DNA of 64,000 nt from Alphaproteobacteria bacterium. GTDB taxonomy: Bacteria; Pseudomonadota; Alphaproteobacteria; RF32; CAG-239. The stretch is from positions 7,227 to 71,226 of the forward strand of contig JAZLAM010000022.1 of the NCBI GenBank assembly GCA_045613125.1. Direction: 5' to 3'. Positions 28,117-43,084 of the stretch are shown in pieces; the stretch's first letter is position 1; the number at the start of each line of letters is the position of its first letter. The notes beneath the pieces were generated by a model that was not told the origin of the DNA, did no database searches, and saw only the letters and a list, made by a program, of their open reading frames with translations. The position numbers and the translations under genes are program-made.

Positions 28117-28800
28117 CTAAATACTTAGTAATTTTAACTCAAAATTTTGTTTTACTTGCTTCCAATTAGGCATTTTGATTGATAGTAGGTTATAAAAATC
28201 TTCTGTATGTCTATCATAATAAATATGGCATAACTCATGATAAATGACATAATCAATTGATTTTTTGCTAGCCTTTATTAATTCGGGATTCAAAACAATT
28301 TCGTGTTTTTTCAAATAGCTTCCCCAACGTTTATTAAGTTTTCTTATTTTTAATACTGGTTTTTCTACATCTGGAAAAGCCTTAATGCATTCGTTAAGAC
28401 GCTCATTGAAAATAATTTCTGCTCGTTTCACAAGCCACTCTTGAAATGCTTTATTTATTTCATCAATCTTTTGAGGTGCAGATGATAAAACATAAATTTT
28501 ATTATTAGATAGCTTTACAACATTTTTAAGAGCCGCTTTTTCAATTATAACCTGATATTGACGTCCAAGGTAAAGAGCAGAACTTCCTGATTCATAAATT
28601 TTATTTTCAGGAGCATTAAATTGCTTAAAATATGATAATTGCTTATCAATCCATAATGTTTTTCTTTTGATAAAATTATCAATTTCAAAATCTTTTGCTT
28701 GAATTGGAGCTTTTATAATTATTCGAAAATCAGGATAAACCTCCGCAGATAAAGATTTCCTGTCTTCTTTAATTATTCTAAAGTCATAATTTTCAAACAT
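28117..28800 (-). CDS. YgjP-like (DUF45/WLM) zinc metallopeptidase associated with type I restriction-modification
   Basis: HELCH (HExxH) motif near the C-terminus. Its start abuts the hsdR stop, as is typical of YgjP partners of HsdR. Confidence 0.6.
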   Translation of the reverse strand: MFENYDFRIIKEDRKSLSAEVYPDFRIIIKAPIQAKDFEIDNFIKRKTLWIDKQLSYFKQFNAPENKIYESGSSALYLGRQYQVIIEKAALKNVVKLSNNKIYVLSSAPQKIDEINKAFQEWLVKRAEIIFNERLNECIKAFPDVEKPVLKIRKLNKRWGSYLKKHEIVLNPELIKASKKSIDYVIYHELCHIYYDRHTEDFYNLLSIKMPNWKQVKQNFELKLLSI

Positions 28801-31800
28801 TAGAGCATATCCTTATTTTGAACAGCCAAATTCCATGCAGTTTGTGCAATTTGCTCAACAACTGATGCAGATAAATCTTCTTCAACCTCATCAAACAAAT
28901 AATCTTCAATAGCAAAAAGAATGTCTCTTTTTACACTTGTGTTATTTTGAAAATCTACAACTTTTTTCGATTTGATAATATCAACTATGTGTTCAACAAT
29001 TTCACCATATCCATCGCCTGTGGATTTGAAAAAGTCTTTAATATTGCGATAAAATGGGTGATAAATCTTTACAGCTCTAATTTTTTCAGGAATATCACTA
29101 TCAACATAATCCGTAACATTTTTTTGATAATCTTTAGCTTGGTTAAGCAAAGCTTCTAAATCTTCTTTTTTTGCATTTTTCAAATCTTTAAGCAATTTAT
29201 CAATTAACTCGCTAAATTTACCATAAAAAGCCTCATCTTGATGATATTTTTCTTGAATAACCTTTTTGGTTTGAGCGAGTATTGCATCAGCTTTTGACTT
29301 ATCTGATAAGCCATTTTTTTGATCTTCAATATATTGGTTAAATTCATACATATTAGATAAACTGATTTCTTTTGAAAGCACCTCAACATCTTTTGCGGTA
29401 ACATATTTATCCAACAATTTCAAAATCTGGTCTTTATATTTCGAAAAATCAACTTTTTCAGCCATAGCTAACTGTGTTGTTTTTTTAATTTCAATAAATC
29501 TTTTCAAGTCTTTTTTATATGTCAGTAGGTCTTCTGTATTTATTTTCTCATGAAAATCATACAACGAATAACAAACCGAAAATTGCTTTATAAATTTATT
29601 TACATCATCATAAAAAGCTTCTCTTTCTTTTTCATGATCCTTCAAAAACTCAATATAAGCATTGGTGTTGTTAACATCTTTGATATTTCTAAACACATCA
29701 TGCAGACGTTCAAAAATACTCTTCAACACAAAAATCTGGCTATCAGCATCTAACAATGCATTTTCAATATCTTCAGGCGCATAGTTAGAAAACAACTCTA
29801 AAGCATTTTTAAGGTTTTTAGCATTTTTAGAGTAGTCAACAATCAAACCGGCTGTTTTACTTTGTTTACCTGCATCACCATCAAATACACGATTAACCCT
29901 TGCAATTGCTTGTAATAAGTTATGGTCTTTTAATTGCTTTGCCAAATATAATGCAGTATCACGAGGAGCATCAAAACCAGTCAATAATTTATCAACTACA
30001 ATGATGAGTTCACAACCTTCAGGATTTTTCTTATAATCTTGAATTATTTGCTTTTCTCTTGTTTCCAAAGAACCATATTTATGTTTTTGCTCTGCTAAAT
30101 ATTCGGTAATTGCTTTTTTATGTGTAGCATTTACATCATCTTTCCCTTCATCAGCTAATGTATCAGAAATAACAACTTCAGAATTAATACATCCAAGCAT
30201 ATCCAAAGAATTTTTAAACATAACAGCAGCATATTTACTCGGAGCAACAAGCTGACCTTTTAATCCTGTATCCTTAAAGTTTTTCATAAAATGATCATTA
30301 ACATCTAAAGCTATCATTTCAATACGTTGAGATGTTTCTTCCAAAACAGAGTTTGATATACATTTTTTAGCAAAGTCCTTACGTTCACTCTCCGAAAATT
30401 TTGAAGCAAGTCTTTCATAAAATTTATCAGCAATCGCATCAATTTTCTGGTCAACAAAGCGTCCTTGATAAATAAGAGGCAATACAGCACCGTCTTTTTC
30501 TGCTTCTGATATTGTATATTCATCAATTAAGCCACCAAATTTTTGAATAGATTCAGACTTTGAAGCAACTTTGCCTTTCAAACGTTCGGGAACTTTTTTC
30601 ATTAAAGGTGTTCCGGTAAAGGCAATCTGACAAGATCTAGGCAACATTTTGTTCATCATTGCATTAGCATCACCACCTTGTGTTCTGTGTGCTTCATCAA
30701 TCAAAACAAAAATGTTATTATCATTATCAACAAAATCTGTCGGTTTATCAAACTTATGAACTAATGTTGTAATAACATCTAATGTTTTAGATTTAATTTT
30801 TTTAACCAAATCTGCGCATGATGTTGCTTGTTGAACACCTTTTTTGATATTGCAAGCTGCAAATGTATCTCTAATCTGAATATCAAGGTCTGTTCTGTCT
30901 GTTACAACAATAACTCTTGGATTGTTAACGGTTTCAATTAAGTTTTTAACCAACATAACCATAGTTAAAGACTTTCCGCTACCTTGTGTATGCCAGATAA
31001 GTCCACCATGACGTTTACCATTTTCATGTTGATTTTGAATTTTTGCTATTGTCTTTTTAATAGCAAAATATTGCTGATAGCGCGTAACTTTCTTAATTCC
31101 ATTATCATAAATGATAAAGTTTCTAACCAAATCAAGCAAACGTGTAGGCTCTAACAGACTATAAATTCCTCTATCTTGAGCTGACGGAGTTTCTTTTTCA
31201 CATTGATTATAAGAATATCTTGATAAATCTGATGCAATTTTCTTAACAACAGCTGTATCAACTGGTTTATTTATACTTTCTAACACTTTTTGCTCATAAG
31301 TGTCTGTTGCATTTTTTTCTTTCCAAACTGAATAAAACTCAAATGGAGTGAGCATTGTTCCATATTTTATTTCATTAACATTGGTTGCAATCAATATTTG
31401 TGGGAACAAAAAGAACTTTGGTGTTTGCGTATATTTTTGGTTTCTTATCATCTGATGAATAGCCTCATCAACCAAAACAGATGCTTTTTTGCACTCAATA
31501 ACTGCAAACGGAATACCATTTACAAACAAAACAATGTCCGGTCTGCGATTTTGATCTTCTTCAATTTCAAATTCAGCCACCACATGAAACATATTTTTTT
31601 CTGGCTCATCCCAATTTATAAACCTTAATTGTGGAGATGTTTTTTTGCCATCAATAATTTCAGGAACAGATACACCACTAAGCAAATTAGAAAAAATAAT
31701 TTCCGAAGCTTTGACCACACCATCATCAAGTTTTATTTTCTCTAATCCAAAAATAGCCTCATCAATACTTTTATCTGATATCTCAGATGGATTTATTTCT

Positions 31801-32006
31801 CGCAAGGCTTTGATTGCAATATCACGCAAAATATATTGGCTTTTGCTATCACGATAATTATCAACCTCATGTCTTGGAATATAGGTATACCCCAAGTTAA
31901 TAAGCTGCAAAATCGCAGGAATTTGCGAACTATTAGCTTCATCAAAATCAGGAAGAATGTGGTGTGTAGTCATAGTATTACTCCGAAAATTCCTTATTTT
32001 TTTCAC
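28800..32006 (-). CDS. hsdR: Type I restriction enzyme R subunit
   Basis: N-terminal nuclease region, then SF2 helicase motifs (TQGSGKSLTM, LIDEAHRTQ). 1068 aa. Confidence 0.9.
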   Translation of the reverse strand: MKKIRNFRSNTMTTHHILPDFDEANSSQIPAILQLINLGYTYIPRHEVDNYRDSKSQYILRDIAIKALREINPSEISDKSIDEAIFGLEKIKLDDGVVKASEIIFSNLLSGVSVPEIIDGKKTSPQLRFINWDEPEKNMFHVVAEFEIEEDQNRRPDIVLFVNGIPFAVIECKKASVLVDEAIHQMIRNQKYTQTPKFFLFPQILIATNVNEIKYGTMLTPFEFYSVWKEKNATDTYEQKVLESINKPVDTAVVKKIASDLSRYSYNQCEKETPSAQDRGIYSLLEPTRLLDLVRNFIIYDNGIKKVTRYQQYFAIKKTIAKIQNQHENGKRHGGLIWHTQGSGKSLTMVMLVKNLIETVNNPRVIVVTDRTDLDIQIRDTFAACNIKKGVQQATSCADLVKKIKSKTLDVITTLVHKFDKPTDFVDNDNNIFVLIDEAHRTQGGDANAMMNKMLPRSCQIAFTGTPLMKKVPERLKGKVASKSESIQKFGGLIDEYTISEAEKDGAVLPLIYQGRFVDQKIDAIADKFYERLASKFSESERKDFAKKCISNSVLEETSQRIEMIALDVNDHFMKNFKDTGLKGQLVAPSKYAAVMFKNSLDMLGCINSEVVISDTLADEGKDDVNATHKKAITEYLAEQKHKYGSLETREKQIIQDYKKNPEGCELIIVVDKLLTGFDAPRDTALYLAKQLKDHNLLQAIARVNRVFDGDAGKQSKTAGLIVDYSKNAKNLKNALELFSNYAPEDIENALLDADSQIFVLKSIFERLHDVFRNIKDVNNTNAYIEFLKDHEKEREAFYDDVNKFIKQFSVCYSLYDFHEKINTEDLLTYKKDLKRFIEIKKTTQLAMAEKVDFSKYKDQILKLLDKYVTAKDVEVLSKEISLSNMYEFNQYIEDQKNGLSDKSKADAILAQTKKVIQEKYHQDEAFYGKFSELIDKLLKDLKNAKKEDLEALLNQAKDYQKNVTDYVDSDIPEKIRAVKIYHPFYRNIKDFFKSTGDGYGEIVEHIVDIIKSKKVVDFQNNTSVKRDILFAIEDYLFDEVEEDLSASVVEQIAQTAWNLAVQNKDML

Positions 32007-32969: not shown

Positions 32970-34208
32970 TTAGTTCACTTTCACGCGGGTTTGGCCGGTT
33001 AAGAGTTGTTGCATTAGGCCTTTCTTTTGCTCTTTTAAGGCGTCTAATTTTTTGTTCAAAAGGTTAATCTCATCATCTGTTGTTGATAAAACATCAGCAA
33101 TAGCCTTTTGTTCGGCAATATCAGAAGGAATAAATACCTTAACTAGCTGAAAATCTTCAGACGAAACAGCCATTCGCTCATATACAGTGCCTTCTTCATA
33201 CCTACGAGCTTTTGAAATAAAATTATCAGTTGTTAATAAATATCCAAAAAATAACGAATTACCATTAATTATTTCATAAGTTACATAAATTGGAGAAAAA
33301 ATCCCTTCTCCATAAGTATTTAAACAAATAACACCAAATTTGAGATTCGCAGGATTATAACATATGTCATGTGACTTGGTTATTTTATACTCTTTATCAA
33401 TCTGCTTAACTAAAAAATCACGATTGTATCTATCTGATTTTGGAACAACTCCTTCTTTTGTTAATGAAACGTGTTCTAATTCAGCTCCTTTAGTCAAATA
33501 TGTTTTTCGTTCTTTTAAAAATTCTTTACATTTGACTTCTTTCCAAGGTTGGGTGAAGCCTTTGAGGCGAGTTTTACCGGTGAGGAGTTTTTGCATCAGA
33601 CCTTTTTTAAGGAGTTTCTTTTGCTCTATCAAAGATGATAACTTTTCAATCGCCTCATCCCAAGTCCCCAATATCCCCGCAATCTTCTCCTGTTCAGGCA
33701 AGGGTGGAAGAAGCAAAAATATTTTTGATAAATCTTCTTGACCGATATTAGAACGAATTGCTCCTTGGCACCTACGTATAGCTTCCTTTCTAAAATAACC
33801 TGATTTAAAACAATATACACTAAACTTTGGAGAAAGAATATTAGATTTAGGTCGACCTCTGATAATAAAACCACCAAAAGTGATTTTTGAAGTATCAAGA
33901 TAAACAGAAGAGCATGCTATTTCTTCAGGAATTTCTGAGGTTCTATTAAATAAGACATCTCCATATATAACACTATTTTCATTAAGTTTACGTTCATTTA
34001 CATTAACAGAACCTATAATATTTTTTTCATATAAATATGTGTTATTAAATATGTCCATAGTATTAACAAATTTAATACCTGAACCATAGGACTCTTTTTC
34101 AGCATTTAGTCCATTCTTAAATATCATAAAATCACCAAGTTTCTTAACACTCCAGCCCTCAGGTATTTTTTGATTATTCTGCATCAATGCTATCCTTTTC
34201 TTCACCAT
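32970..34208 (-). CDS. hsdS: Type I restriction-modification specificity subunit (two target-recognition domains)
   Basis: Conserved central (LPPLPEQEKIAGIL) and C-terminal (AEQKAIADVL...LKEQKKGLMQQLLTG) HsdS repeats flanking two variable domains. Confidence 0.85.
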   Translation of the reverse strand: MVKKRIALMQNNQKIPEGWSVKKLGDFMIFKNGLNAEKESYGSGIKFVNTMDIFNNTYLYEKNIIGSVNVNERKLNENSVIYGDVLFNRTSEIPEEIACSSVYLDTSKITFGGFIIRGRPKSNILSPKFSVYCFKSGYFRKEAIRRCQGAIRSNIGQEDLSKIFLLLPPLPEQEKIAGILGTWDEAIEKLSSLIEQKKLLKKGLMQKLLTGKTRLKGFTQPWKEVKCKEFLKERKTYLTKGAELEHVSLTKEGVVPKSDRYNRDFLVKQIDKEYKITKSHDICYNPANLKFGVICLNTYGEGIFSPIYVTYEIINGNSLFFGYLLTTDNFISKARRYEEGTVYERMAVSSEDFQLVKVFIPSDIAEQKAIADVLSTTDDEINLLNKKLDALKEQKKGLMQQLLTGQTRVKVN

Positions 34209-34653
34209 TTATTACAAATTTATAAGATGGAGCATCTTTTTCTAACAATACCCAGACACCTAATAAATACTTATATTCACCTGTTGGATTAGTTAAATCT
34301 TTCAATTTTTGAATATCCTTTTCATCGTCATTATTCCACCATCCTTTAAATTCAATAGCTATTTTATTTTCATCATTACTCCACATTTTATGTAAAATAA
34401 TATCAGGACGAACCCCTTTGGGAAAATTAGGAGTTGATTTAACAGAATCACAATTTTTATTATATTCTGAATTTAGATCCAAATCTTTATATTGTGATGA
34501 TTGGACTTTTTGAAAAAGATGGGTGTAAATCAGAGCAACAACACATTGTTCTAATCCCTGAATTTGAATAACTTTTGAAAAATTAGCATAAACAGCATCA
34601 ACTGAGCGTTGAAGCATATTAAATAGTTGTTTCCGTTCTTTTAACTTACTCAT
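34174..34653 (-). CDS. Hypothetical protein with a possible PD-(D/E)xK nuclease signature (159 aa)
   Basis: RPDIILH ... IAIEFK resembles the D...ExK core. The call rests on this weak motif alone. Confidence 0.3.
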   Translation of the reverse strand: MSKLKERKQLFNMLQRSVDAVYANFSKVIQIQGLEQCVVALIYTHLFQKVQSSQYKDLDLNSEYNKNCDSVKSTPNFPKGVRPDIILHKMWSNDENKIAIEFKGWWNNDDEKDIQKLKDLTNPTGEYKYLLGVWVLLEKDAPSYKFVINGEEKDSIDAE

Positions 34654-34663
34654 ATATCACCTC

Positions 34664-35143
34664 TCAGGTATTTTTTGATTGTGCTTCAACTATAACATCA
34701 TTTTTATTTAACACTTTGTCAGAATAAGAGTTTTTATATAAATTCATATACTTGTCTGCAAAATCAAAAGTGTAATCTAATTGAAAAACTATAATTAATA
34801 GTGCAATATGTGCTGACGATAGGTATAAAGTATCTTTGTAATTATAACTAAAAGAAAAAGCATTTAAAAAAAATAAAAACAATAAAGAAAACAATGATGT
34901 TTTTAAGAATTTTTTATTGTCATATATAAATTTTTCAAACATATTATGTTTTTTCATATAAAGATTTATTTCTTGGTTAGCATAAGCAGCTAAAAGAAAT
35001 GATTGAGAAAAAGCAAAAATAATTGATATACAAGTAATTGCATCTGAAAGCAGGCCATTATTCAAAGTGAACAATAGACTTATATTTAGAAGTAAAAATA
35101 AAATCCATGTCCTACATTTTACTAAAGATTTCTTCAATTTCAT
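34664..35143 (-). CDS. Small 4-TM membrane protein
   Basis: Start assigned to MKLKKSL. Four hydrophobic helices. Overlaps the end of the upstream 251-aa gene. Confidence 0.4.
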   Translation of the reverse strand: MKLKKSLVKCRTWILFLLLNISLLFTLNNGLLSDAITCISIIFAFSQSFLLAAYANQEINLYMKKHNMFEKFIYDNKKFLKTSLFSLLFLFFLNAFSFSYNYKDTLYLSSAHIALLIIVFQLDYTFDFADKYMNLYKNSYSDKVLNKNDVIVEAQSKNT

Positions 35144-35867
35144 AATATCCTTCTTCCTTTTCAAATTCAAAAATTTCTTTTGCAACAACACTTTCCTCAT
35201 TAATGGATATGAAACCATCAGAACTTTCTCCTTTGATGTTAAAGGATTTTATATATGATGGTGCTTTAAGTTTATTATATAATTTTATTAAATAACTTTC
35301 TTTAAGAGCTCTTTTGAAATCCATTTTAACTATTGTTGTTTCTGGTCGTTCTTTTGCATCTAAATCATCTCCCCAATCTGGATTTAAAAAATCATGAATA
35401 AATAAATCATTTGTTGCTGTAATAGAAATAGATTCTATAGATTTAACTTGCTTAACAAAATCATCAATAGATGTAGAAACCGCTAATAATTTACAAGAGA
35501 AATCATTATCAGCTCCATGTAATAAATTTAATATTATATTTCTTTTATCATGGTCGGAACATAGTACTCGGTCTTGATAAATAACAAATATAAATTGATT
35601 AGTCATATGAATAATTTCTTCAGATAATATGCTATCATCATAATTTTTCTGATTTTTATTATAGCATCTATTAGGTTTTAACTTACCATAGGACACTAAA
35701 AAAACAATTTTGTCTTTATCTGCCATATGACGGATTGTATATGTTATACTTCTTAATGGAAATTCAATAATTTCTTTATTGCTGAATAAATCCTTTGAAA
35801 TTCGTTTTCCTGCACCTAAAAGGTCAACACATTCAGGAATATAATTAAACATACGTACTATACTCAT
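35112..35867 (-). CDS. Hypothetical cytoplasmic protein (251 aa) paired with the membrane protein
   Basis: ORF separated by 4 bp from the upstream fic. No motif recognised. Confidence 0.4.
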   Translation of the reverse strand: MSIVRMFNYIPECVDLLGAGKRISKDLFSNKEIIEFPLRSITYTIRHMADKDKIVFLVSYGKLKPNRCYNKNQKNYDDSILSEEIIHMTNQFIFVIYQDRVLCSDHDKRNIILNLLHGADNDFSCKLLAVSTSIDDFVKQVKSIESISITATNDLFIHDFLNPDWGDDLDAKERPETTIVKMDFKRALKESYLIKLYNKLKAPSYIKSFNIKGESSDGFISINEESVVAKEIFEFEKEEGYYEIEEIFSKM

Positions 35868-35870
35868 TGC

Positions 35871-36917
35871 TTAATACTCCTCCACAATTTCCCAATGACC
35901 GCCTTTGTCTGGACCGATACGACGGAGCTGATTATTGTTTTTCAAATTGGTTATTTGTTTAGCTATTGCACGTCTTGATATTCCAAGAGTTTCAGCCATC
36001 TCGGTTGTTGTGATTTTTGGATTTTGTGCAATTAACTCTAAAATTTTCTGTGAACTTTTCTGTGAACTTTTCTGTGAACTTTTTTCTTCTGTGGTACTCA
36101 CATCTTTAATCTGCATTTCGCGATTGTCCAAGAGATTAGTTTCATCTAAAAGCAAGTTTCCAAAGAACTTGTTTAAGAATTCCATTGTATAAGGAATGTC
36201 TTTTTTAAGGTTTTGATAGTTAGCACGAACAAGCGCATTACGGAAATATTTAGCATATTTTTCAAATATGTCGTTATTAGTTTCAAAACCTAAAGTATAA
36301 AGATATTTAATCACAAAAACCGCGGTGGTTCTGGTGTTACCTTCGCCAAAAGGATGTATCTGCCAAACTCCTGATATAAACTTTGCTAAATGCTCAACCT
36401 TTTGTTTGTTTGAAAGCCCTTGATAATTAAATTTCTTCTCTTGAGCAAAATCATAATCCAAAGTTTCTTGAATACTGTCCGAACGGCCATAAATAACCGT
36501 ATCACCATTTAAGATAGGTTCTTTTTTGGTAATATCATAAGTGCGAATTTTACCGGTAATTTCATCTTTTAAGATACCTGTAAATAAAGCCTTGTGAATA
36601 GAAAGGAGTTCAACAGGGCTAAATGAAAAAGTGTGTGTACTCAATAGTTTTGTGATACGAGCAGAAACCTCGTCAGCTTCTTTTTCATTGTGTTCTTGCA
36701 CAGTTTTTGCCGGATTTTGCTTATAATAACGAGCAATTTCTTCATTGGCCTCATCAATGGAAATTTTGCCTTCAATATTATCTTTAGCAACATCTATCAG
36801 ATATTTTGAAGGAGTTAACCCGTCAACTTGTTGCAAACCGATAGCAACACGCCAATTTTCTGCCTTTTTATATTTTTCAGGCTCATTTTGCTTTTTATAT
36901 TCTTCAAAATGCTCCAT
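35871..36917 (-). CDS. Fic/Doc family protein with a C-terminal winged-HTH, embedded in the type I restriction-modification operon
   Basis: Variant Fic motif HPFGEGNTRTT (HPFx[DE]GN[GT]R). SSQKSSQKSSQK linker. C-terminal HTH (TTEMAETLGISRRAIAKQI). Confidence 0.7.
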   Translation of the reverse strand: MEHFEEYKKQNEPEKYKKAENWRVAIGLQQVDGLTPSKYLIDVAKDNIEGKISIDEANEEIARYYKQNPAKTVQEHNEKEADEVSARITKLLSTHTFSFSPVELLSIHKALFTGILKDEITGKIRTYDITKKEPILNGDTVIYGRSDSIQETLDYDFAQEKKFNYQGLSNKQKVEHLAKFISGVWQIHPFGEGNTRTTAVFVIKYLYTLGFETNNDIFEKYAKYFRNALVRANYQNLKKDIPYTMEFLNKFFGNLLLDETNLLDNREMQIKDVSTTEEKSSQKSSQKSSQKILELIAQNPKITTTEMAETLGISRRAIAKQITNLKNNNQLRRIGPDKGGHWEIVEEY

Positions 36918-36920
36918 CTA

Positions 36921-38423
36921 TTACACTCCTAATTCTTTGAGGTATTCATTCATCTTGGCTTGAACATCTTGAAGCTCTTTTTCAAGTGAAGCGATATCAG
37001 ACTTAACTTTTGCTAAATCAACTTCTTCTTCCTCTTCAAAAGTATCTACATAGCGAGGGATGTTGAGGTTAAAGTCGTTTTCGCTAATTTCATCAAAGGT
37101 TGCGATATGCGAATATTTTTCAATTTCTTTGCGATTTTTATATGTATCAACGATTTTATTGATATGCTCATCTGAAAGAGTGTTTTGGTTTTTACCAGGA
37201 ACAAACTCTTTGCTTGCATCAATAAACAAAACATCTTTTTTGTTTTCATTGACCCCGCCTTGTTCACGAGATCTATCAAAAACAAGCATTGCGACAGGAA
37301 TACCGGTTGTTTGGAATAAGCTATTAGGCAAGCCAATTACAGCATCAAGAATATTTTCTCTAATTAATGCTTCTCTAATTCTTCCTTCTGATGAACCACG
37401 GAATAATACACCATGTGGAACAATAACTGCTACACGACCGGATCTTGGTTTTGCTGTTGCAATCATATGTGAGATAAATGCATAATCTCCTTTACTTGCT
37501 GGAGGCATACCTCTATCAAAACGATTGTAAATATCATTTTCTAAATGTTTTTCACCCCATTTATCTAATGAAAATGGCGGGTTTGCAACGATTACATCAA
37601 ATTGCATTAAATGGTCATTTTCCTTCAACAATGGGTTGTTTAAGGTGTCACCCCATTCAATGCGAGCAGAATCTTGTCCATGCAAAAACATATTCATACG
37701 AGCAAGGTTATAGGTTGCACCGGTTTTTTCTTGTCCATATAAAGCATAATCTTTTGAACCTTGAGAAGAAACTTCTTCACCGGCTAACAATAACAGGCCA
37801 CCTGAACCACAAGCTGGGTCACAAATTCTATCACCTGGTTTAGGCATAGCTAATTTTGCTAACAAAGCAGACAGAACTTTTGGTGTATAAAATTCTCCCG
37901 CTTTCTTGCCTGCATCTGAACCAAAACGTTCTATCAGATACATATAAGCATTACCAAGCAAATCACCCTCAACATCAGACAAATCAACCTGACTAAAATC
38001 ATTAATAAGATCTCTAATCATTTTATTTCGTTGACTAGTTTGGCCTAAAATAGCTTCATTGTTAAAATCGACGGTAAAAATCCCTTTTAAATGAGCCTCG
38101 TTAGCATCTTCAATTTTGCGAAGTGCTTTATTTATTAGCTCACCAACATTGTCTGCATTTTGTTGTTCGTAGATATCATAAAAACTAGCACCTTCAGGCA
38201 ACACAAAACGAGCATTTTTAAGACGAAGTTCAATACGTTCTTTATCATTTCCATAGCGTTCTTGAAGTTTTTTTACTTCAGCTTGCTTAATATCGCTCAT
38301 ATATTTATAAAACAAAAAGGCTAAAATATAGTCTTTGAACATACCGCCATCGACCACACCGCGCGCAGAATCTGCTGCACTCCATAATAGGTTATTTAAT
38401 TTGTCTTGCGTAATTTTAGCCAT
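36921..38423 (-). CDS. hsdM: Type I restriction-modification N6-adenine methyltransferase subunit
   Basis: HsdM N-terminal domain, an AdoMet-binding motif, and NPPF (VIVANPPFS). Confidence 0.9.
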   Translation of the reverse strand: MAKITQDKLNNLLWSAADSARGVVDGGMFKDYILAFLFYKYMSDIKQAEVKKLQERYGNDKERIELRLKNARFVLPEGASFYDIYEQQNADNVGELINKALRKIEDANEAHLKGIFTVDFNNEAILGQTSQRNKMIRDLINDFSQVDLSDVEGDLLGNAYMYLIERFGSDAGKKAGEFYTPKVLSALLAKLAMPKPGDRICDPACGSGGLLLLAGEEVSSQGSKDYALYGQEKTGATYNLARMNMFLHGQDSARIEWGDTLNNPLLKENDHLMQFDVIVANPPFSLDKWGEKHLENDIYNRFDRGMPPASKGDYAFISHMIATAKPRSGRVAVIVPHGVLFRGSSEGRIREALIRENILDAVIGLPNSLFQTTGIPVAMLVFDRSREQGGVNENKKDVLFIDASKEFVPGKNQNTLSDEHINKIVDTYKNRKEIEKYSHIATFDEISENDFNLNIPRYVDTFEEEEEVDLAKVKSDIASLEKELQDVQAKMNEYLKELGV

Positions 38424-38426
38424 TTT

Positions 38427-39002
38427 TTACTCCTTAATAGTCTGACTTAATATTGAGTTTATTAGTTTTTTTCTTGATTGCTTTATTTTTTCAAATATAT
38501 CCACCTCTTTTTCATAAAGAGAAAATAATTCAACAAGTTGCTTTTGTTTTTCTAGATGTAGAAGGGGGATGTCTATTTGCTTTAATTCATTAATAGTTAT
38601 CGTGCTTACGCGTTCAGTATTTTGGCGCAAGTTTAATTGTGATTTGCAGATAGGGGAATTCAGGTATAGGGCAACATATTCAGGATAATATTTTTCGTTA
38701 ATTAACTTAATACGATAAAAAGCACTTGATGCTATTGTTTGTATGTTATTTTTCCAAATAGCAGCTTTAAAATCTCCCTTATTTGTAAACAAAATTTCGT
38801 TTTGGTAAAGGAAATATTTTTCTTTAGCATTGACAATATCTGCTTTTTCTAAGTTACGGATATTGATATGGGTGAAATTTTCAACATCTCTGGGCTGAAC
38901 TACCGGAACAGTGGAGATTACACATTCTTTTTTTTCAAGAGAAATTAATTCTCTTCTAAAATTATGTCCTATTTTTACTTCAGCTATATCAGATAATCTC
39001 AT
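38427..39002 (-). CDS. hsdS: Half-size HsdS (single target-recognition domain)
   Basis: One variable domain plus the conserved C-terminal repeat (IDIPLLHLEKQKQLVELF). Sits 4 bp upstream of hsdM. Confidence 0.65.
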   Translation of the reverse strand: MRLSDIAEVKIGHNFRRELISLEKKECVISTVPVVQPRDVENFTHINIRNLEKADIVNAKEKYFLYQNEILFTNKGDFKAAIWKNNIQTIASSAFYRIKLINEKYYPEYVALYLNSPICKSQLNLRQNTERVSTITINELKQIDIPLLHLEKQKQLVELFSLYEKEVDIFEKIKQSRKKLINSILSQTIKE

Positions 39003-39265
39003 TTTTACATCCTATTTTGTTGAGTATGAAACTTTATAGCATATAAAAAACAAAAACACAAGACAAAAATTAGTTCCAGAAGAAAAAAACTTCTTGACAA
39101 GTTTCAGGGCTTTTCATATAAACAAAATGAGCTTGGTAGATTCCAAACTCATTAACTGGCAAATCAGAAACATGACTTGCGCTGTCTTTTGCACCTCTAG
39201 TAATAGTCATTTTTCTTGGTTTGTCAATTGAATTTTAACAATAAAGCCAAGAAAGGAAAATAAAA

Positions 39266-39562
39266 ATGGCTATAAATTATAAAATTGTAAATGATATACT
39301 TAATTATATCGGAAATGAAAATAAATCAGATTGGTATATAGGAATAGCAACATATCCACGTAATAGGTTATTTGGAGATCACAATGTGAATGAACTTAGT
39401 GGTCGATGGATTTATAATACTAATCCAATGAGTGAAAATGACGCAAGAGAAACAGAGGCTTACCTATTAAAAATGTATCCTTTTAAGGGAAATACTGGTG
39501 GTGGAGACCATCCTCAGTATGTTTATGCTTATAAAATAACTTCATATACTAGAGAATCATAA
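39266..39562 (+). CDS. Hypothetical protein (98 aa), weak GIY-YIG-like half motif
   Basis: WYIGIATYPRNRLFGDH resembles the YIG...R...H part of GIY-YIG domains. The first GIY element is not evident. Confidence 0.3.
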   Translation: MAINYKIVNDILNYIGNENKSDWYIGIATYPRNRLFGDHNVNELSGRWIYNTNPMSENDARETEAYLLKMYPFKGNTGGGDHPQYVYAYKITSYTRES

Positions 39563-39600
39563 AAATGGGCGGATATTCCGCCCTTATTTTTCCAAAGTGA
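39563..39600 (+). terminator. Rho-independent terminator
   Basis: gggcggatattccgccc hairpin followed by a T-run. Confidence 0.55.
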
Positions 39601-39950
39601 CCAGCCAGAAGTGACCAGTGACCAGCCAGAATTTTTTATACCCCCTTATAACCCTTGTGTTTATTGGGGTTTGGGATATACCCGACCAGCCAAAATTTTT
39701 CTGTTTCGCTAGAAATATGGCGCGGCTTGCGTCCCCGCATATGAATTATCGCTAGGAAGGACCCGCTGGTACCTTAACCCCCTAAAAAGGACTGGCCCTC
39801 TATACTCAACCGGCGGTTATGGTCATGTTAGTATTATACTATCCGCCAAAATCGGGCAAAATCCGGGATAGTATGTAGATACTATGATAGTATCCGGTAA
39901 TTTGGCGAAAAACCAGAGATACTATCTTGTTAGTATCATACTATCCTTAA
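39600..39950. repeat. Direct repeats and clustered TAGTAT/ATACTA palindromes (candidate att or recombination site)
   Basis: GTGACCAGCCAGAA appears twice, plus cccgaccagccaaaa. A GC-rich segment follows. Beyond it there are at least 7 copies of GATAGTAT/ATACTATC forming palindromes such as atagtatgtagatactat and tagtatcatacta. Confidence 0.55.
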
Positions 39951-40009
39951 TTTTAGAAACCACCGCAAATTTTGTATTTGGAATAGGGCAGATTTGTTTA
40001 TCACCTCCT

Positions 40010-40801
40010 TTACAAATACTCGCCGGTTTTGTGGGTGTGGCAGAGGGCAAAGTGCCAGCCGTCTAGTTTCTTACCGCTTCTTTCACACCAACCGTTGGCT
40101 TCATAATAACTATAAAAGCCTTCCAGATTGATATAGATGTTCTTTTCGGCCACATACCGTTCCACTTCCTGCCAGTTAGGTGGCAGTTGTGTGAAGTGAT
40201 ACTTAAACTTCGCGCCCACTCCTAATCCTTGCCGAGCCAAAACATCACCAAGCCCAACCAAACCACTACCGGTTCGTTTTTGCTCAAAAATCGCCGGCTC
40301 AGCTAATTTCTTTTCATTATTTACATTATTACCTTGTTTTCTTTCTTCAGTCGTTGGCGGATAGTCGGCGATTAAACGGCTTTCATCCGGCGGACAAGTG
40401 GCGGTGGTGTTCGGCGTTATATCCTCAAAGCCCTGATATTTATTATAGTTAATGAGCCTGACAAGTGTGGCACATCCGATACGTGTTGTTGTAATATCGT
40501 TGGTGCGTTTGAGTTTATTAAGTAGTCGCCTGATTTGGTCCTTGGATTTATCCAGAGTTTCAGCCAATCGCATGTGGCTGATGACAACTTCGCCCCGATG
40601 AACAATAATATCCTTAAAGGGCTTATCTTTGAAATTTGCCGTCAGCATCAGGTGGAGATATAGTTGCAAAACATTTGCATCTGAATACCAATGCCAATCT
40701 TGAAAATCGCGGTAGAACTTAATAAATCCGCCTTTGACAACTTCCTTTTTGTGAAAAGACAAAGAGGTATTGTCAGACTTATGGTGTATCATATCTGTCA
40801 T
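40010..40801 (-). CDS. Phage/plasmid replication-like protein (263 aa)
   Basis: Higher-GC gene adjacent to the serine recombinase. N-terminal region FIKFYRDFQDWHWY...GEVVISHMRLAETL and C-terminal Cys/His-containing domain resemble mobile-element replication proteins. The assignment is tentative. Confidence 0.35.
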   Translation of the reverse strand: MTDMIHHKSDNTSLSFHKKEVVKGGFIKFYRDFQDWHWYSDANVLQLYLHLMLTANFKDKPFKDIIVHRGEVVISHMRLAETLDKSKDQIRRLLNKLKRTNDITTTRIGCATLVRLINYNKYQGFEDITPNTTATCPPDESRLIADYPPTTEERKQGNNVNNEKKLAEPAIFEQKRTGSGLVGLGDVLARQGLGVGAKFKYHFTQLPPNWQEVERYVAEKNIYINLEGFYSYYEANGWCERSGKKLDGWHFALCHTHKTGEYL

Positions 40802-40816
40802 GAGAAAACTCCTGTC

Positions 40817-42445
40817 TTAAATTTCCGGGAAGTTATATTTTTTGCGTTGTTCGGCCCAAATTGGTGGAATTTCCTCGCGTATCAGACGTTTTAAGATAAA
40901 GTCTGCCGGTTGAGTGCCTGCCAGAATGGATTTGATAATATCCGGTGCCAACGAAGTTAAACGAAGAATACGTCCCAAATAACCGGCATCCAGTTCTTCA
41001 TGTAACGATAGTTCGGCAATAGTCATTCGACCGGAGGTTAATATCTTTTGATATTTAAACGCTTTGGAAAGGGCTTTGATAAGCTCTTTATTCGGGCAAG
41101 AGTTTTGCGTTAACGCTTCCGGAACTGTCACCTGTAATACACCATGCGTTCTGGAAAGAGGGACATCTATTGTCATGATGTCGTCTTTGGTTTGAGCGGC
41201 GTATTTATCAGGTAAAATATCCAGCGCCAAAGCAGTCCATTTGATTTCCAAATTATCACATTGAACCGTAATGTTTTCGATTAACTCTTTGACTAAAAGC
41301 GATTTATCAAGCTCACTCATCTTTGCCAAGACCTTTTCTGGATGTTGCATAATCTTAAACAGCTCTTTGGTTTTATCCGGTGCAATTTGCTTGATAAGTC
41401 CGTTTAGGATATGGGCATCTTTTAGCATTGGCGTGATGATTTGTATAATCGCTTCATCAAGGATAGCCACCGCTACCGAGCCATTATGACAAGTATGATA
41501 GCCGTAGTATTTGGCTTTGGTCGAGGTATAATAATAACGCCTGCGACCATGTCCCATGCTGACCGTTGGTGTCATTCGGGTATGGCAGCAACCACAAGTT
41601 AAAATACCACGCAAAATGCCGACTTCGTTTTTCTTGTATAAGCAAGAGCGTTTGGCTACATCTTTGGAGGCTCTGATTTCGGCAACCTTATCAAATGTTT
41701 CTTGATCGATAATGGCCGGATGTTGTCCATCATATAGTTCATTTTTGTGTTTGACTTTGCCAAGGTAAACCGGATTTTTGAGTAATCGTTTTATCATCTC
41801 TCGGCGGTATTCTATACCGTATTTATCTTTGACTAACTTACAGACGGCGGTAATGGATTTATGCTTTAGATAACTTTCAAACATAAAGCGTATCATTTCG
41901 CCTTCTTCCGGTTTAATTTTGAGCTTTTTGTTGATAGCAACATAACCGGTCGGAACAGCACCGCCCATCCACATGCCTTTCTTTTTAGACGCGGCTACTT
42001 TATCACGAATACGTTCACCGCTGACTTCCCGTTCAAATTGAGCAAATGAAAGTAAGATATTGAGCATCAAACGGCCCATACTGTCGGCGGTATTAAAATT
42101 TTGGGTTACCGATACGAAAGAGCAGTTGTTCTTTTCCAATATCTCAATCATTTTGGAAAAGTCGGTTAATGACCTGGTTAACCGGTCTATTTTATAAACG
42201 ACAATCATGTCAACTTTGCCGGCATTGATGTCTTCTAACAGGCGCTCTAAGGCGGGTCTATTCATATTACCGCCGGAAAAGCCTCCATCATCATAATGTT
42301 CAGGAATGATTTTCCAACCTTGATGTTTCTGACTTAATACATAATTTTCACCGGCTTCACGCTGAGCTTCTAATGTATTAAACTCTTTATCCAACCCTTC
42401 ATCGGTTGATTTTCGGGTATAAATGGCACAACGAACTTCTTTCAT
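40817..42445 (-). CDS. Large serine recombinase
   Basis: N-terminal resolvase domain (CAIYTRKSTDEG with catalytic Ser). A recombinase domain and a zinc ribbon (CGCCHTRM...C). 542 aa. GC clearly above that of neighbouring genes. Confidence 0.85.
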   Translation of the reverse strand: MKEVRCAIYTRKSTDEGLDKEFNTLEAQREAGENYVLSQKHQGWKIIPEHYDDGGFSGGNMNRPALERLLEDINAGKVDMIVVYKIDRLTRSLTDFSKMIEILEKNNCSFVSVTQNFNTADSMGRLMLNILLSFAQFEREVSGERIRDKVAASKKKGMWMGGAVPTGYVAINKKLKIKPEEGEMIRFMFESYLKHKSITAVCKLVKDKYGIEYRREMIKRLLKNPVYLGKVKHKNELYDGQHPAIIDQETFDKVAEIRASKDVAKRSCLYKKNEVGILRGILTCGCCHTRMTPTVSMGHGRRRYYYTSTKAKYYGYHTCHNGSVAVAILDEAIIQIITPMLKDAHILNGLIKQIAPDKTKELFKIMQHPEKVLAKMSELDKSLLVKELIENITVQCDNLEIKWTALALDILPDKYAAQTKDDIMTIDVPLSRTHGVLQVTVPEALTQNSCPNKELIKALSKAFKYQKILTSGRMTIAELSLHEELDAGYLGRILRLTSLAPDIIKSILAGTQPADFILKRLIREEIPPIWAEQRKKYNFPEI

Positions 42446-42447
42446 GG

Positions 42448-42849
42448 CTATACTCCAAAAAATTCTTTGCCGGAGATTTTCCGACCGGTTATTTCCAAAG
42501 CGATAGCCGATAGAGATTTATAAACCTGGCCATCAAACTCAAAACCATCTTTCAACACACGCAGACGATAAACATTACCCTTGAACCGTTTGATAAGCTC
42601 TGTGCCAACGGGCAAATAAGTTGCATTATCGGGTTCATCATCCATTGTTTCAAGTAGGTGTTTGGTTGCACTGTCTAATCCGCCAAAGCGCAGTTCTTGC
42701 AATCTGTTTGTAACACGCCAGATAAAAAAGGACTTACGGGTGGCCTTCGTTGGAAGAGAGAAAAGCTCAATATAGAGTTTGTATAACTCATCAAAGTCTA
42801 ATTGAGGTATGTCTTCCAAAGGAATGTCTAAATTAATATTTTTGACCAT
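42448..42849 (-). CDS. DUF2924-like protein partnered with the serine recombinase
   Basis: Start assigned to MVKNINLD. Translationally coupled (3-bp gap) to the recombinase, as seen in integrative elements. Confidence 0.5.
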   Translation of the reverse strand: MVKNINLDIPLEDIPQLDFDELYKLYIELFSLPTKATRKSFFIWRVTNRLQELRFGGLDSATKHLLETMDDEPDNATYLPVGTELIKRFKGNVYRLRVLKDGFEFDGQVYKSLSAIALEITGRKISGKEFFGV

Positions 42850-43084
42850 CGTTAACTCCTTTTGTTTGACAATGAATGCTTGCTTTTGAAACAATATCAA
42901 GTGATTTTTCGGGATTTTTCGATAAATCTTTGGGCTCTGTTTCGTTTAAGATTTCAGCCACAGCTGTTTTTAACAGTTCTATGATTTCATTCATGGTTTT
43001 ATCCTTTCAGAAAGTTCCTACATACAGAACAAGTGAAAAAATCGAAAAATCGTTCTCACTTTTTTCAATTTTTTTTGTTTGTCT

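Follow-up and report, generated by a model that had tools for sequence, protein, structure and literature searches.

Within a Type I restriction-modification (R-M) operon, three genes, here called A, B and C, lie between fic and hsdS in the window (the whole 64,000-nucleotide stretch of the alphaproteobacterial contig JAZLAM010000022.1 that was analyzed), and this arrangement raises the question of whether they form one defense system or several, and of what kind. A sequence-only reading of the same DNA had described the three open-reading frames as a sensor/effector module, and all three are present between hsdS and fic on the minus strand, together covering ~ 1.7 kb (Table 1). In our assessment, the operon fairly probably carries two independent anti-phage cargo modules, in one of which A and B form an abortive-infection pair of the RexAB type.

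The host operon was identified by hsdM, hsdS and hsdR, all of which were found in one direction, as expected for Type I R-M. The gene order is half-size hsdS, hsdM, fic, A, B, C, hsdS, a 244-aa ORF, an 87-aa ORF, hsdR and a ygjP-like gene. All three hsd genes have orthologues in locus L012, where the hsdS gene is 46% identical and carries Methylase_S (hsdM and hsdR in Table 1).

Table 1 Features of the Type I R-M operon and its embedded genes in the window
Feature	Position	Strand	Basis
hsdR, restriction subunit	28800..32006	-	81% identity to L012 gene with HSDR_N/ResIII/T1RH-like_C
hsdS, specificity subunit	32970..34184	-	ORF; homologues in L012 and other loci are Methylase_S genes
Downstream repeat copy, overlapping the end of C: functional hsdS 5′ end (MQNNQKIPEGW)	34153..34199	-	Repeat search and junction alignment
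Gene C, 159 aa; small solo protein of PD-(D/E)xK type, proposed independent cargo	34174..34653	-	Motif, PADLOC profile, distribution
Upstream repeat copy: hsdS 5′-end relic within the 3′ tail of B	34658..34704	-	Repeat search and junction alignment
Gene B, 159 aa; proposed membrane effector with a basic N-terminus and four hydrophobic helices	34664..35143	-	ORF, hydropathy, homologues
Gene A, 251-aa soluble protein, predicted to have two domains as in RexA/RdgC; proposed sensor	35112..35867	-	ORF, ribosome-binding site, fold model
Fic-HTH protein, embedded cargo	35871..36917	-	Pfam Fic 6e-11 and HTH_24; PADLOC PDC-S72 8e-121 (PADLOC candidate)
hsdM, methyltransferase subunit	36921..38423	-	86% identity to L012 gene with HsdM_N/N6_Mtase
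Half-size hsdS at the operon head, 191 aa with a single target-recognition domain	38427..39002	-	Pfam Methylase_S 5e-7; PADLOC Specificity_I 2e-15

Gene A starts 3 nt past the fic stop, with the ribosome-binding site GGAGGAG upstream. The longest ORF of gene B has its start at 35218 and encodes 184 aa, and an ATG at 35143, preceded by GGAAGAAGGA, gives 159 aa, which is the length annotated by NCBI (P0043, 100% identity). Gene C, preceded by GAGAGGTGA, starts 10 nt past the B stop. Two hsdS starts come into question, 34184 (MQNNQKIPEGW), which would give an overlap with C of 11 nt, and 34208, which would give one of 35 nt; the former is favored by the B/hsdS and C/hsdS junction sequences conserved in other loci. 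With an A/B overlap of 32 nt, this spacing bears out the earlier account of co-directional, tightly or translationally coupled genes inside a defense operon, in which A and B overlapped by ~ 30 nt and C lay 10 bp downstream of B and overlapped the hsdS start. A, B and C are real genes under selection. The probability of such ORFs arising by chance, given the local base composition, is 3e-11 for 251 codons and 2e-7 for 159 codons, and dN/dS values against homologues of 0.07–0.34 for the three genes (0.10–0.27 for A) indicate purifying selection. A promoter and terminator scan of A-B-C found neither enrichment nor an internal terminator and hence gives no support to a transcription unit of their own. 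Scanning the three proteins with Pfam, NCBIfam, PADLOC and PHROGs gave no significant match, and they are missing from Pfam, NCBIfam, PHROGs and PADLOC v2, save for a remote PADLOC match of C; they are therefore missed by current annotation pipelines.

In all of the ~ 40 loci retrieved with relatives of either gene, the two are adjacent, co-oriented and usually overlapping, with B directly downstream of A every time, the placement of a small multi-pass membrane partner that characterizes RexAB-type systems. Relatives of A fall into 28 homologue clusters and those of B into 40, and the superfamily of A comprises 46 representatives among 1.84 billion proteins; B also follows A among relatives of about 16–28% identity, and at about 20% identity to A a membrane partner of ~ 150 aa is still present. 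The hosts are uncultured gut and rumen Alphaproteobacteria, and no member of the A family was found in IMG/VR viral contigs, GenBank phages or plasmids.

An AlphaFold (AF2) model of A (pLDDT 77) predicts a split β-rich globular domain, an inserted domain of dimerization type and a C-terminal helix, at residues 2–140, 143–235 and 244–250, respectively, mirroring the published domains of RexA (1–139, 143–234 and 248–279). When this model was compared with the PDB using Foldseek, the top match was lambda RexA (8twq_B, E 1.5e-5, probability 1.00). The Foldseek match, secondary structure and domain boundaries all point to a RexA/RdgC-like two-domain fold, with the caveat that the RexA match has a large rmsd and a TM-score of only 0.28, both of which may reflect a differing orientation of the domains. 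Against BFVD, the first matches were phage proteins of 277–322 aa (E 1.8e-11, TM 0.62), followed by phage RdgC proteins (E 1e-3 to 8e-3), and the presence of RdgC agrees with the RdgC-like fold published for RexA (PMC11077077). The similarity of A to RdgC is one of fold, and the RdgC matches are longer (355–373 aa) and score below both RexA and the uncharacterized phage proteins. RdgC forms a ring-shaped dimer and is not known to be paired with a membrane protein. At the level of sequence profiles, Pfam RexA (PF15969) matched neither A nor 44 members of its superfamily, the PHROG RexA family did not match A, and hhalign of the superfamily against lambda RexA, as a single sequence or a 4-sequence alignment, returned a probability of <1%. 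As a control, the Pfam RexA and RexB profiles recognized the lambda proteins (E 1e-97 for lambda RexA). Profile searches of PDB sequences with A, the distant A group and C produced chance matches only (intermediate filaments, proteasome, CdiI). Family-library scans of the 44 superfamily members likewise gave scattered noise only, including one weak match to HamA and two to PD-Lambda-5_A, which were judged to be chance.

The basic N-terminus attributed to B from its sequence is present (MKLKKSLVKCR). The four hydrophobic helices attributed to it hold up in part, in that three segments are clear in a Kyte-Doolittle scan and the fourth, at about residues 108–127, is below threshold and was read from the sequence and from family conservation. 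The family also conserves the motifs SDAITCISIIFAFSQS and YMNxYKNSYS. We propose that B is RexB-like in size, topology and position. Pfam RexB (PF15968) did not match B, and hhalign of the B family against RexB gave a probability of <1%, even with the alignment broadened by distant partners. The last helices of B and RexB each contain an H-I-x-x-L-x-x-Q-L-like motif, which was discarded as evidence because its spacing differs (H to Q 9 versus 7 residues).

In lambda, rexA (279 aa) lies upstream of rexB, which encodes 144 aa with four predicted transmembrane helices, and this pair (PF15969/PF15968; 8TWQ) shares with A and B the gene order of a soluble protein of ~ 250–280 aa followed by a four-helix membrane protein of ~ 145–160 aa, the genes being closely spaced and co-directional. 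RexA is the best PDB fold match of A, with near-equal domain boundaries and the same RdgC-like structural relatives, although A is ~ 30 aa shorter and no sequence similarity is detectable for either protein. The earlier view that these genes match no obvious named system thus no longer applies to A and B, which have the architecture of lambda RexAB, A being predicted to have the RexA fold. The two pairs differ in genomic setting: rather than on a prophage beside a cI-type immunity repressor, A and B occur, in the window and in related loci, in Type I R-M operons or defense islands. Five Rex-like systems have been described, all of them prophage-borne, and other accepted members also lack sequence similarity to RexB (PMC12894663). 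The divergent RexAB-type systems, RexABpp of Pseudomonas putida and gp30/31, gp44/43 and gp30/31 of the actinobacteriophages Sbash, CarolAnn and Butters, were recognized only because the RexA-like protein of each showed a remote or structural resemblance, as A does, and their membrane partners (at least that of P. putida) have no detectable RexB homology, as is true of B. They are two-component systems of a sensor and a membrane effector, which is what we propose for A and B. They differ in being prophage-encoded, whereas A and B are chromosomal and embedded in R-M operons, and HHpred detects P. putida RexA (98%), whereas for A hhalign, run against a small RexA alignment, found nothing. The RexA-like fold of A together with a four-helix membrane partner points to a RexAB-type abortive-infection pair.

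By analogy with RexA, cytosolic A would recognize a sign of infection, for instance phage DNA or a DNA-protein intermediate, and in response activate B. The latter, as a four-helix inner-membrane protein of ~ 150 aa, would then open or disrupt the membrane, leading to a stop in growth and an aborted infection. The 32-nt overlap would couple translation of the two proteins and, since the B stop overlaps the hsdS start in most genomes, the pair is expected to be expressed with the methylase and specificity genes. The analysis documents gene structure, conservation, co-occurrence, fold similarity, motifs and the repeat; the anti-phage role, the trigger and all biochemical activities, here and for C, are inferred.

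The second module would be C alone, as independent cargo. The RPDIILH (residues 82–88) and IAIEFK (98–103) stretches, which had been likened to the core of PD-(D/E)xK nucleases, are present, and E35, P83-D84 and E101-F-K103 are invariant in 14/14 members of the family (homologues 44–92% identical). In the predicted structure, D84 lies in a strand at 82–88 and E101/K103 in a strand at 97–103, followed by a helix at 110–120 and a strand at 131–136, so that conservation and model together give a PD-(D/E)xK motif on adjacent β-strands with an upstream helix glutamate. The PADLOC profile PD-Lambda-3_A matches 9/14 members, best in P0041 (E 2e-8, residues 23–154 against profile positions 20–148 of 159) and then P0040 (E 9e-7), both clear C homologues (E 2e-29 and 1e-34, respectively). 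These matches make C a remote relative, by sequence profile, of protein A of PD-lambda-3, an abortive-infection system of E. coli (Vassallo et al. 2022) that is listed with a PD(D/E)xK domain and has been used as an abortive-infection control. Likeness extends to the near full-length profile match of the family, the size of ~ 159 aa and the PD-(D/E)xK-type content; unlike PD-lambda-3, the window protein itself matches weakly (E 0.012, in the core region), lies inside a Type I R-M operon and has no PD-Lambda-3_B partner, none being found among the window neighbors or adjoining C homologues. Presumably, C is a nuclease or nucleic-acid-binding effector. It might instead be a catalytically inert DNA- or protein-binding scaffold of PD-(D/E)xK-like form, or another fold with a coincidental motif, a reading that we regard as unlikely while giving it real weight, since the C model (pLDDT 63) has a low-confidence core and returned nothing significant in Foldseek, and all Pfam matches of the family are below threshold. 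Those matches are mostly to nuclease families (AHJR-like in 5/14 members; VRR_NUC, Hjc and Mrr_cat in single members), as are several weak PHROG matches, and they argue, with the profile link to PD-Lambda-3_A, the invariant catalytic-type residues across diverged homologues and the strand-strand-helix-strand order, against this alternative.

Could A, B and C nevertheless act as one three-component system, for example with A sensing, B anchoring or permeabilizing and C cleaving? The tight co-directional junctions and the recurrence of the same trio in L020/L026 would fit, but these two loci are one contig in two collections, from a near-identical lineage (hsdM 97%, hsdR 98%), so that the three-gene unit recurs in only one close relative and is not conserved. 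C is absent from every other A+B locus retrieved, and A+B is absent from every other C locus; without the pair, C is found in the orthologous operons of L012-15 and L018-19, on the short contig L016, which has no R-M genes, and on plasmids, where its homologues are isolated hypothetical genes. The flanks of C also carry a direct repeat (D1; 47 nt, 77% identity, spacing 505 nt), which a junction alignment including B/hsdS of L021 and L027 and C/hsdS of L012 assigned to the hsdS 5′ end. This duplication suggests recombination at hsdS and is consistent with secondary juxtaposition; most likely, recombination at the conserved hsdS 5′ end gave rise to the order now seen and left the 47-nt relic. 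A single three-component system is thus highly improbable. The sensor/effector idea survives for A and B, which resemble a sensor and a membrane effector, and fails for the trio as one unit. Of the two findings that the earlier account named as fatal to it, no nuclease fold and no conservation as a unit, the second applies, and on the first the C model gave no significant fold match, so that its refutation is half borne out.

The genomic position of A and B bears on whether the pair acts on its own. The loci include two unrelated Type I R-M lineages, that of the window (L020, L021) and a second with hsdM only ~ 29% identical (L001-11, L023-25, L044-48), and in most of them the pair lies exactly between hsdM and hsdS, immediately upstream of the latter with the B stop overlapping its start, a position that recurs down to 28% identity. 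This position, with the RdgC-like fold of A, would suit an accessory of the R-M enzyme, for example one in which an RdgC-like DNA-binding protein and its membrane anchor modulate restriction, restriction alleviation or recombination at HsdR breaks. ClpXP controls HsdR during restriction alleviation. The reported inhibition of ClpXP/ClpAP proteolysis by RexB (PMC11077077) would fit such a role as well. We nonetheless consider it unlikely that A and B are such an accessory rather than an autonomous system, because the pair occurs without Type I R-M nearby in L022 (beside an integrase, a serine recombinase, an MmeI-like enzyme and HNH), L029 (beside pAgo and a DpnII-MboI nuclease-domain protein), L037 and L041, and upstream of hsdM in L024, and because Type I operons of the same lineage (L012, L018) function without it. 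The near-obligate position and the recurrent B stop/hsdS overlap in two unrelated lineages also prompt a rather improbable variant, a Rex-like membrane switch functionally wired to restriction, in which the pair would monitor whether the R-M complex is intact or active, much as PrrC is held latent by EcoprrI, or read DNA intermediates made by HsdR, and fire its abortive response once the enzyme is overcome by phage anti-restriction. If true, it would couple a RexA-fold sensor to R-M in the manner of a guard and offer a tractable model for the Rex trigger. Less probable again is an addiction or toxin-antitoxin-like module, with B as membrane toxin and A as neutralizer, that stabilizes the R-M operon or island instead of sensing phage. 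A small membrane protein translationally coupled to a soluble partner and mobile across islands would agree with this, and Rex-like systems with altered logic exist, the roles of gp30/gp31 in mycobacteriophage Butters being reversed relative to lambda; against it, known toxin-antitoxin families show no similarity to A and B, the fold of A points to RexA, and a larger, conserved, sensor-like protein upstream is the Rex layout. Kiwa, which also includes a membrane protein (KwaA, with KwaB), was rejected on the absence of PADLOC/Pfam matches and of a Kiwa chain among the PDB fold matches, and on its opposite gene order.

The RexAB-type reading also suits the surroundings. Defense genes embedded in Type I R-M operons are an established pattern, as in PrrC of EcoprrI, TgvAB of Vibrio VPI-2 and the 'guilt-by-embedding' candidates of Payne et al., and here too independent modules lie between hsd genes, probably as a complementary second line of defense, with the hsdM-hsdS and hsdS-hsdR gaps serving as variable cargo slots. 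What differs is the cargo, which there is an anticodon nuclease or a GmrSD-like enzyme and here comprises a Rex-like membrane pair plus a nuclease-like small protein. C extends the set of R-M-embedded genes to a solo PD-lambda-3_A-like protein, and the locus points to the hsdS 5′ end as a site where cargo genes are exchanged by recombination. If the RexAB-type assignment is true, A and B would constitute a sixth Rex-like family, unrelated in sequence to RexA/RexB and similar in fold and architecture, that broadens the class and offers numerous natural variants for sequence comparison, and a RexA fold paired with a four-helix membrane protein would be a mobile defense module that extends beyond prophage immunity regions.

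On the minus strand, from 28.1 to 39.0 kb, the window carries one co-directional array of genes lying 1-10 nt apart or overlapping, in which a consensus scan detected neither an internal terminator nor an excess of promoter-like sites. The arrangement of the three genes A, B and C within this Type I restriction-modification (R-M) operon was as the sequence-only reading had described it. The A/B overlap, claimed to be about 30 nt, measures 32 nt, with the B start codon, the ATG at 35143, preceded by GGAAGAAGGA; C starts 10 nt past the B stop, is preceded by GAGAGGTGA and overlaps hsdS. The basic N-terminus and four hydrophobic segments of B are present, as are the C motifs RPDIILH (residues 82-88) and IAIEFK (98-103). 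The chance of ORFs this long in the local AT-rich DNA is P ~3e-11 and 2e-7, and dN/dS against homologues is 0.07-0.34. The observation of three genes is confirmed, and their interpretation is partly supported.

Genes of the R-M operon, listed from its head
Feature	Position	Strand	Remarks
Half-size hsdS, 191 aa	39002-38427	-	Single target-recognition domain; operon head, 5' of hsdM
hsdM	38423-36921	-	
Fic-HTH	36917-35871	-	Fic domain and C-terminal winged helix; PADLOC PDC-S72, E 8e-121
A, 251 aa	35867-35112	-	
B, 159 aa	35143-34664	-	
C, 159 aa	34653-34174	-	
hsdS	34184-32970	-	
244-aa ORF	32968-32234	-	Between hsdS and hsdR
87-aa ORF	32241-31978	-	Between hsdS and hsdR
hsdR	32006-28800	-	
YgjP-like (PF01863) metallopeptidase	28800-28117	-	1-nt overlap with hsdR stop

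That Type I R-M operons can carry embedded defence genes is well established, as PrrC, TgvAB of Vibrio VPI-2 and a 'guilt-by-embedding' survey exemplify, and the window's operon, with Fic-HTH, A+B, C and two further ORFs between its hsd genes, is a clear case. The Fic-HTH protein, whose match PDC-S72 is a PADLOC candidate, has a threefold SSQK repeat immediately N-terminal to the HTH, and the hsdM-hsdS gap of related operons repeatedly holds Fic, RhuM and Doc-type genes. The 244-aa and 87-aa ORFs overlap by 8 nt and gave no family match; the 244-aa protein has a Cys-rich N-terminus (CCLNCAFCMRC) and one C-terminal transmembrane helix. Its homologue in L018, an orthologous operon of the window's own lineage, is 47% identical and occupies the corresponding slot.

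The half-size hsdS, possibly a second specificity gene or else a substrate for shuffling of specificity, occupies the same position in the loci L012, L018, L020 and L021, where it is only 38-66% identical; in L020, otherwise 97-98% identical to the window, both specificity genes diverge sharply from the window's (44-47% identity). At the other end of the operon, the YgjP-like gene keeps its place behind hsdR in L012 and L021. The flank immediately upstream (39100-42900) has a GC content of 0.40-0.45, against 0.25-0.38 across the operon, and contains a strong bidirectional hairpin (39567-39583) and ORFs of 98 aa (weak GIY-YIG match), 263 aa, 542 aa and 150 aa, of which the 542-aa ORF is, from its sequence, a putative large serine recombinase. 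A DUF2924 gene and a serine recombinase also lie upstream of the orthologous operon in L018. An integrative element may carry the entire R-M operon or lie next to it.

About 50 loci were retrieved and the window's operon proteins were mapped onto each. The proposal that A, B and C form one cassette did not hold, as A-B-C recurs among these loci only once, in the nearly identical L020/L026 (one contig) of the window's R-M lineage. Each locus that was retrieved with an A or B relative has both genes side by side in the same orientation, and in L021, of the window's R-M lineage, they are kept with another gene where the window has C. They also recur in a second Type I lineage, with hsdM and hsdR just 23-31% identical to those of the window, in the order hsdM-A-B-hsdS (the B stop overlapping the hsdS start), a variable slot and hsdR. 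In several of these operons the slot holds a ~280-aa family (L001 9749-10615, L009 12507-13349, L024 15880-16731, L048 4197-5045; 41-57% mutual identity, no Pfam match), and in others Fic, PIN_12, an AAA_15/DUF2813 ATPase or DUF3644. A+B also lies outside any Type I system: its neighbours in L022 are an integrase, a serine recombinase, an MmeI-like enzyme and an HNH protein, and those in L029 a Piwi-domain Argonaute and a protein with a DpnII-MboI nuclease domain. Among the most distant A relatives placeable on contigs, three have a ~150-aa membrane-protein gene downstream, overlapping or abutting, one such pair lying directly upstream of hsdS, which indicates that the A+B pair is ancient and obligate.

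C is found without A+B in orthologous operons (hsdM 83-86% identical to the window's), where it is preceded by another trio (L012-15) or flanked by a RhuM-like gene and a 244-aa gene (L018-19), and it stands alone in L016; its remote relatives on plasmids of Photobacterium and Aurantiacibacter are hypothetical genes that lie isolated. The trio in L012 (8605-10011), in the slot of A+B, consists of overlapping genes whose products are 144 aa (one transmembrane helix), 167 aa (DUF6680; likewise one) and 159 aa long (a single hydrophobic segment), and may be another uncharacterised embedded module.

A direct repeat of 47 nt with 77% identity (34153-34199 and 34658-34704) surrounds C, and both copies correspond to the hsdS 5' end (AATCAAAAAATACCTGAGGG, coding NQKIPEGW within the conserved N-terminus MQNNQKIPEGW). 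The upstream copy is a decayed relic, which now codes for the atypical C-terminal tail of B in the window, and aligns with the B/hsdS junction of L021 and L027; the window's C/hsdS junction aligns with that of L012. In L021 (11179-11919), at the same insertion spot, an unrelated membrane ORF of 246 aa is fused to this hsdS N-terminus (MHNNQKIPEGWSV). Given these junction alignments and this fusion, the conserved hsdS 5' end looks like a recombination point for cargo exchange and a recurrent insertion point, and the window's gene order most likely arose when an 'A-B-hsdS start' module was joined to a 'C-hsdS' module.

Homologue clusters of A (n = 28), B (n = 40) and C (n = 14) came only from metagenomes and MAGs of human gut and rumen, labelled as uncultured Alphaproteobacteria. 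For C, library searches gave sub-threshold matches only (AHJR-like REase, E 0.066; PD-Lambda-3_A, 0.012; PHROG endonuclease, 0.012). All 14 homologues keep E35, P83-D84 and E101-F-K103 along with SEYNKN and GWW motifs, and PADLOC PD-Lambda-3_A was matched by nine of them, with the two most divergent aligning to almost all of it (E 2e-8 and 9e-7). Weak Pfam matches in the family were mostly to nucleases (AHJR-like in 5/14; VRR_NUC, Hjc and Mrr_cat in one member each). In the weak C model (pLDDT 63), D84 lies on one strand and E101/K103 on the next, with a helix and then a further strand after them, the order of a PD-(D/E)xK core; Foldseek gave no significant match, and the HMM evidence is better. 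PD-lambda-3, for which a PD(D/E)xK domain is listed, is an abortive-infection system of E. coli; no PD-Lambda-3_B partner was found in the window or beside C homologues. The best description of C is a solo PD-(D/E)xK-type protein, probably a nuclease, rather than a complete PD-lambda-3 system.

Neither A nor B gave a significant match in Pfam, NCBIfam, PADLOC or PHROGs, a profile search of 1.84 billion representative proteins returned only 46 A relatives (250-280 aa), and none of 44 scanned A-family members matched a Pfam or PADLOC family. When the A model (AlphaFold2, 27-sequence alignment, pLDDT 77) was compared with the PDB using Foldseek, the top two hits were both lambda RexA (8TWQ; E 1.5e-5, prob 1.00, and E 4e-4, prob 0.99). 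Against BFVD, uncharacterised phage proteins of 277-322 aa came top (E 1.8e-11, TM 0.62) and phage RdgC next, in agreement with the RexA-RdgC relationship reported for the RexA structure (PMC11077077). The model comprises a beta-rich domain (2-140), a second domain (143-235) and a terminal helix (244-250), a layout shared with RexA, whose globular domain is split (1-139 and 248-279) by an intervening dimerisation domain (143-234) (PMC11077077). The lambda gene pair is ordered in the same way, rexA (279 aa) being followed closely by rexB (144 aa, four predicted transmembrane helices). In the current model, RexA detects an infection and turns on RexB, and the infection is aborted through membrane depolarisation or damage by RexB (PMC12894663).

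On balance, we favor A+B as a RexAB-type abortive-infection pair, in which A would sense infection and B would act on the membrane as effector. That this pair is in addition functionally wired to the R-M enzyme as its guard seems improbable. A+B is Rex-like yet unrecognisable by sequence, and in P. putida, at least, the Rex-like membrane partner has no sequence similarity to RexB (PMC12894663). The five Rex-like systems described are all prophage-borne (PMC12894663). Searches of phage and plasmid collections found no member of the A+B family. The novelty is in the cargo and its setting, a Rex-like family habitually inserted immediately 5' of hsdS.
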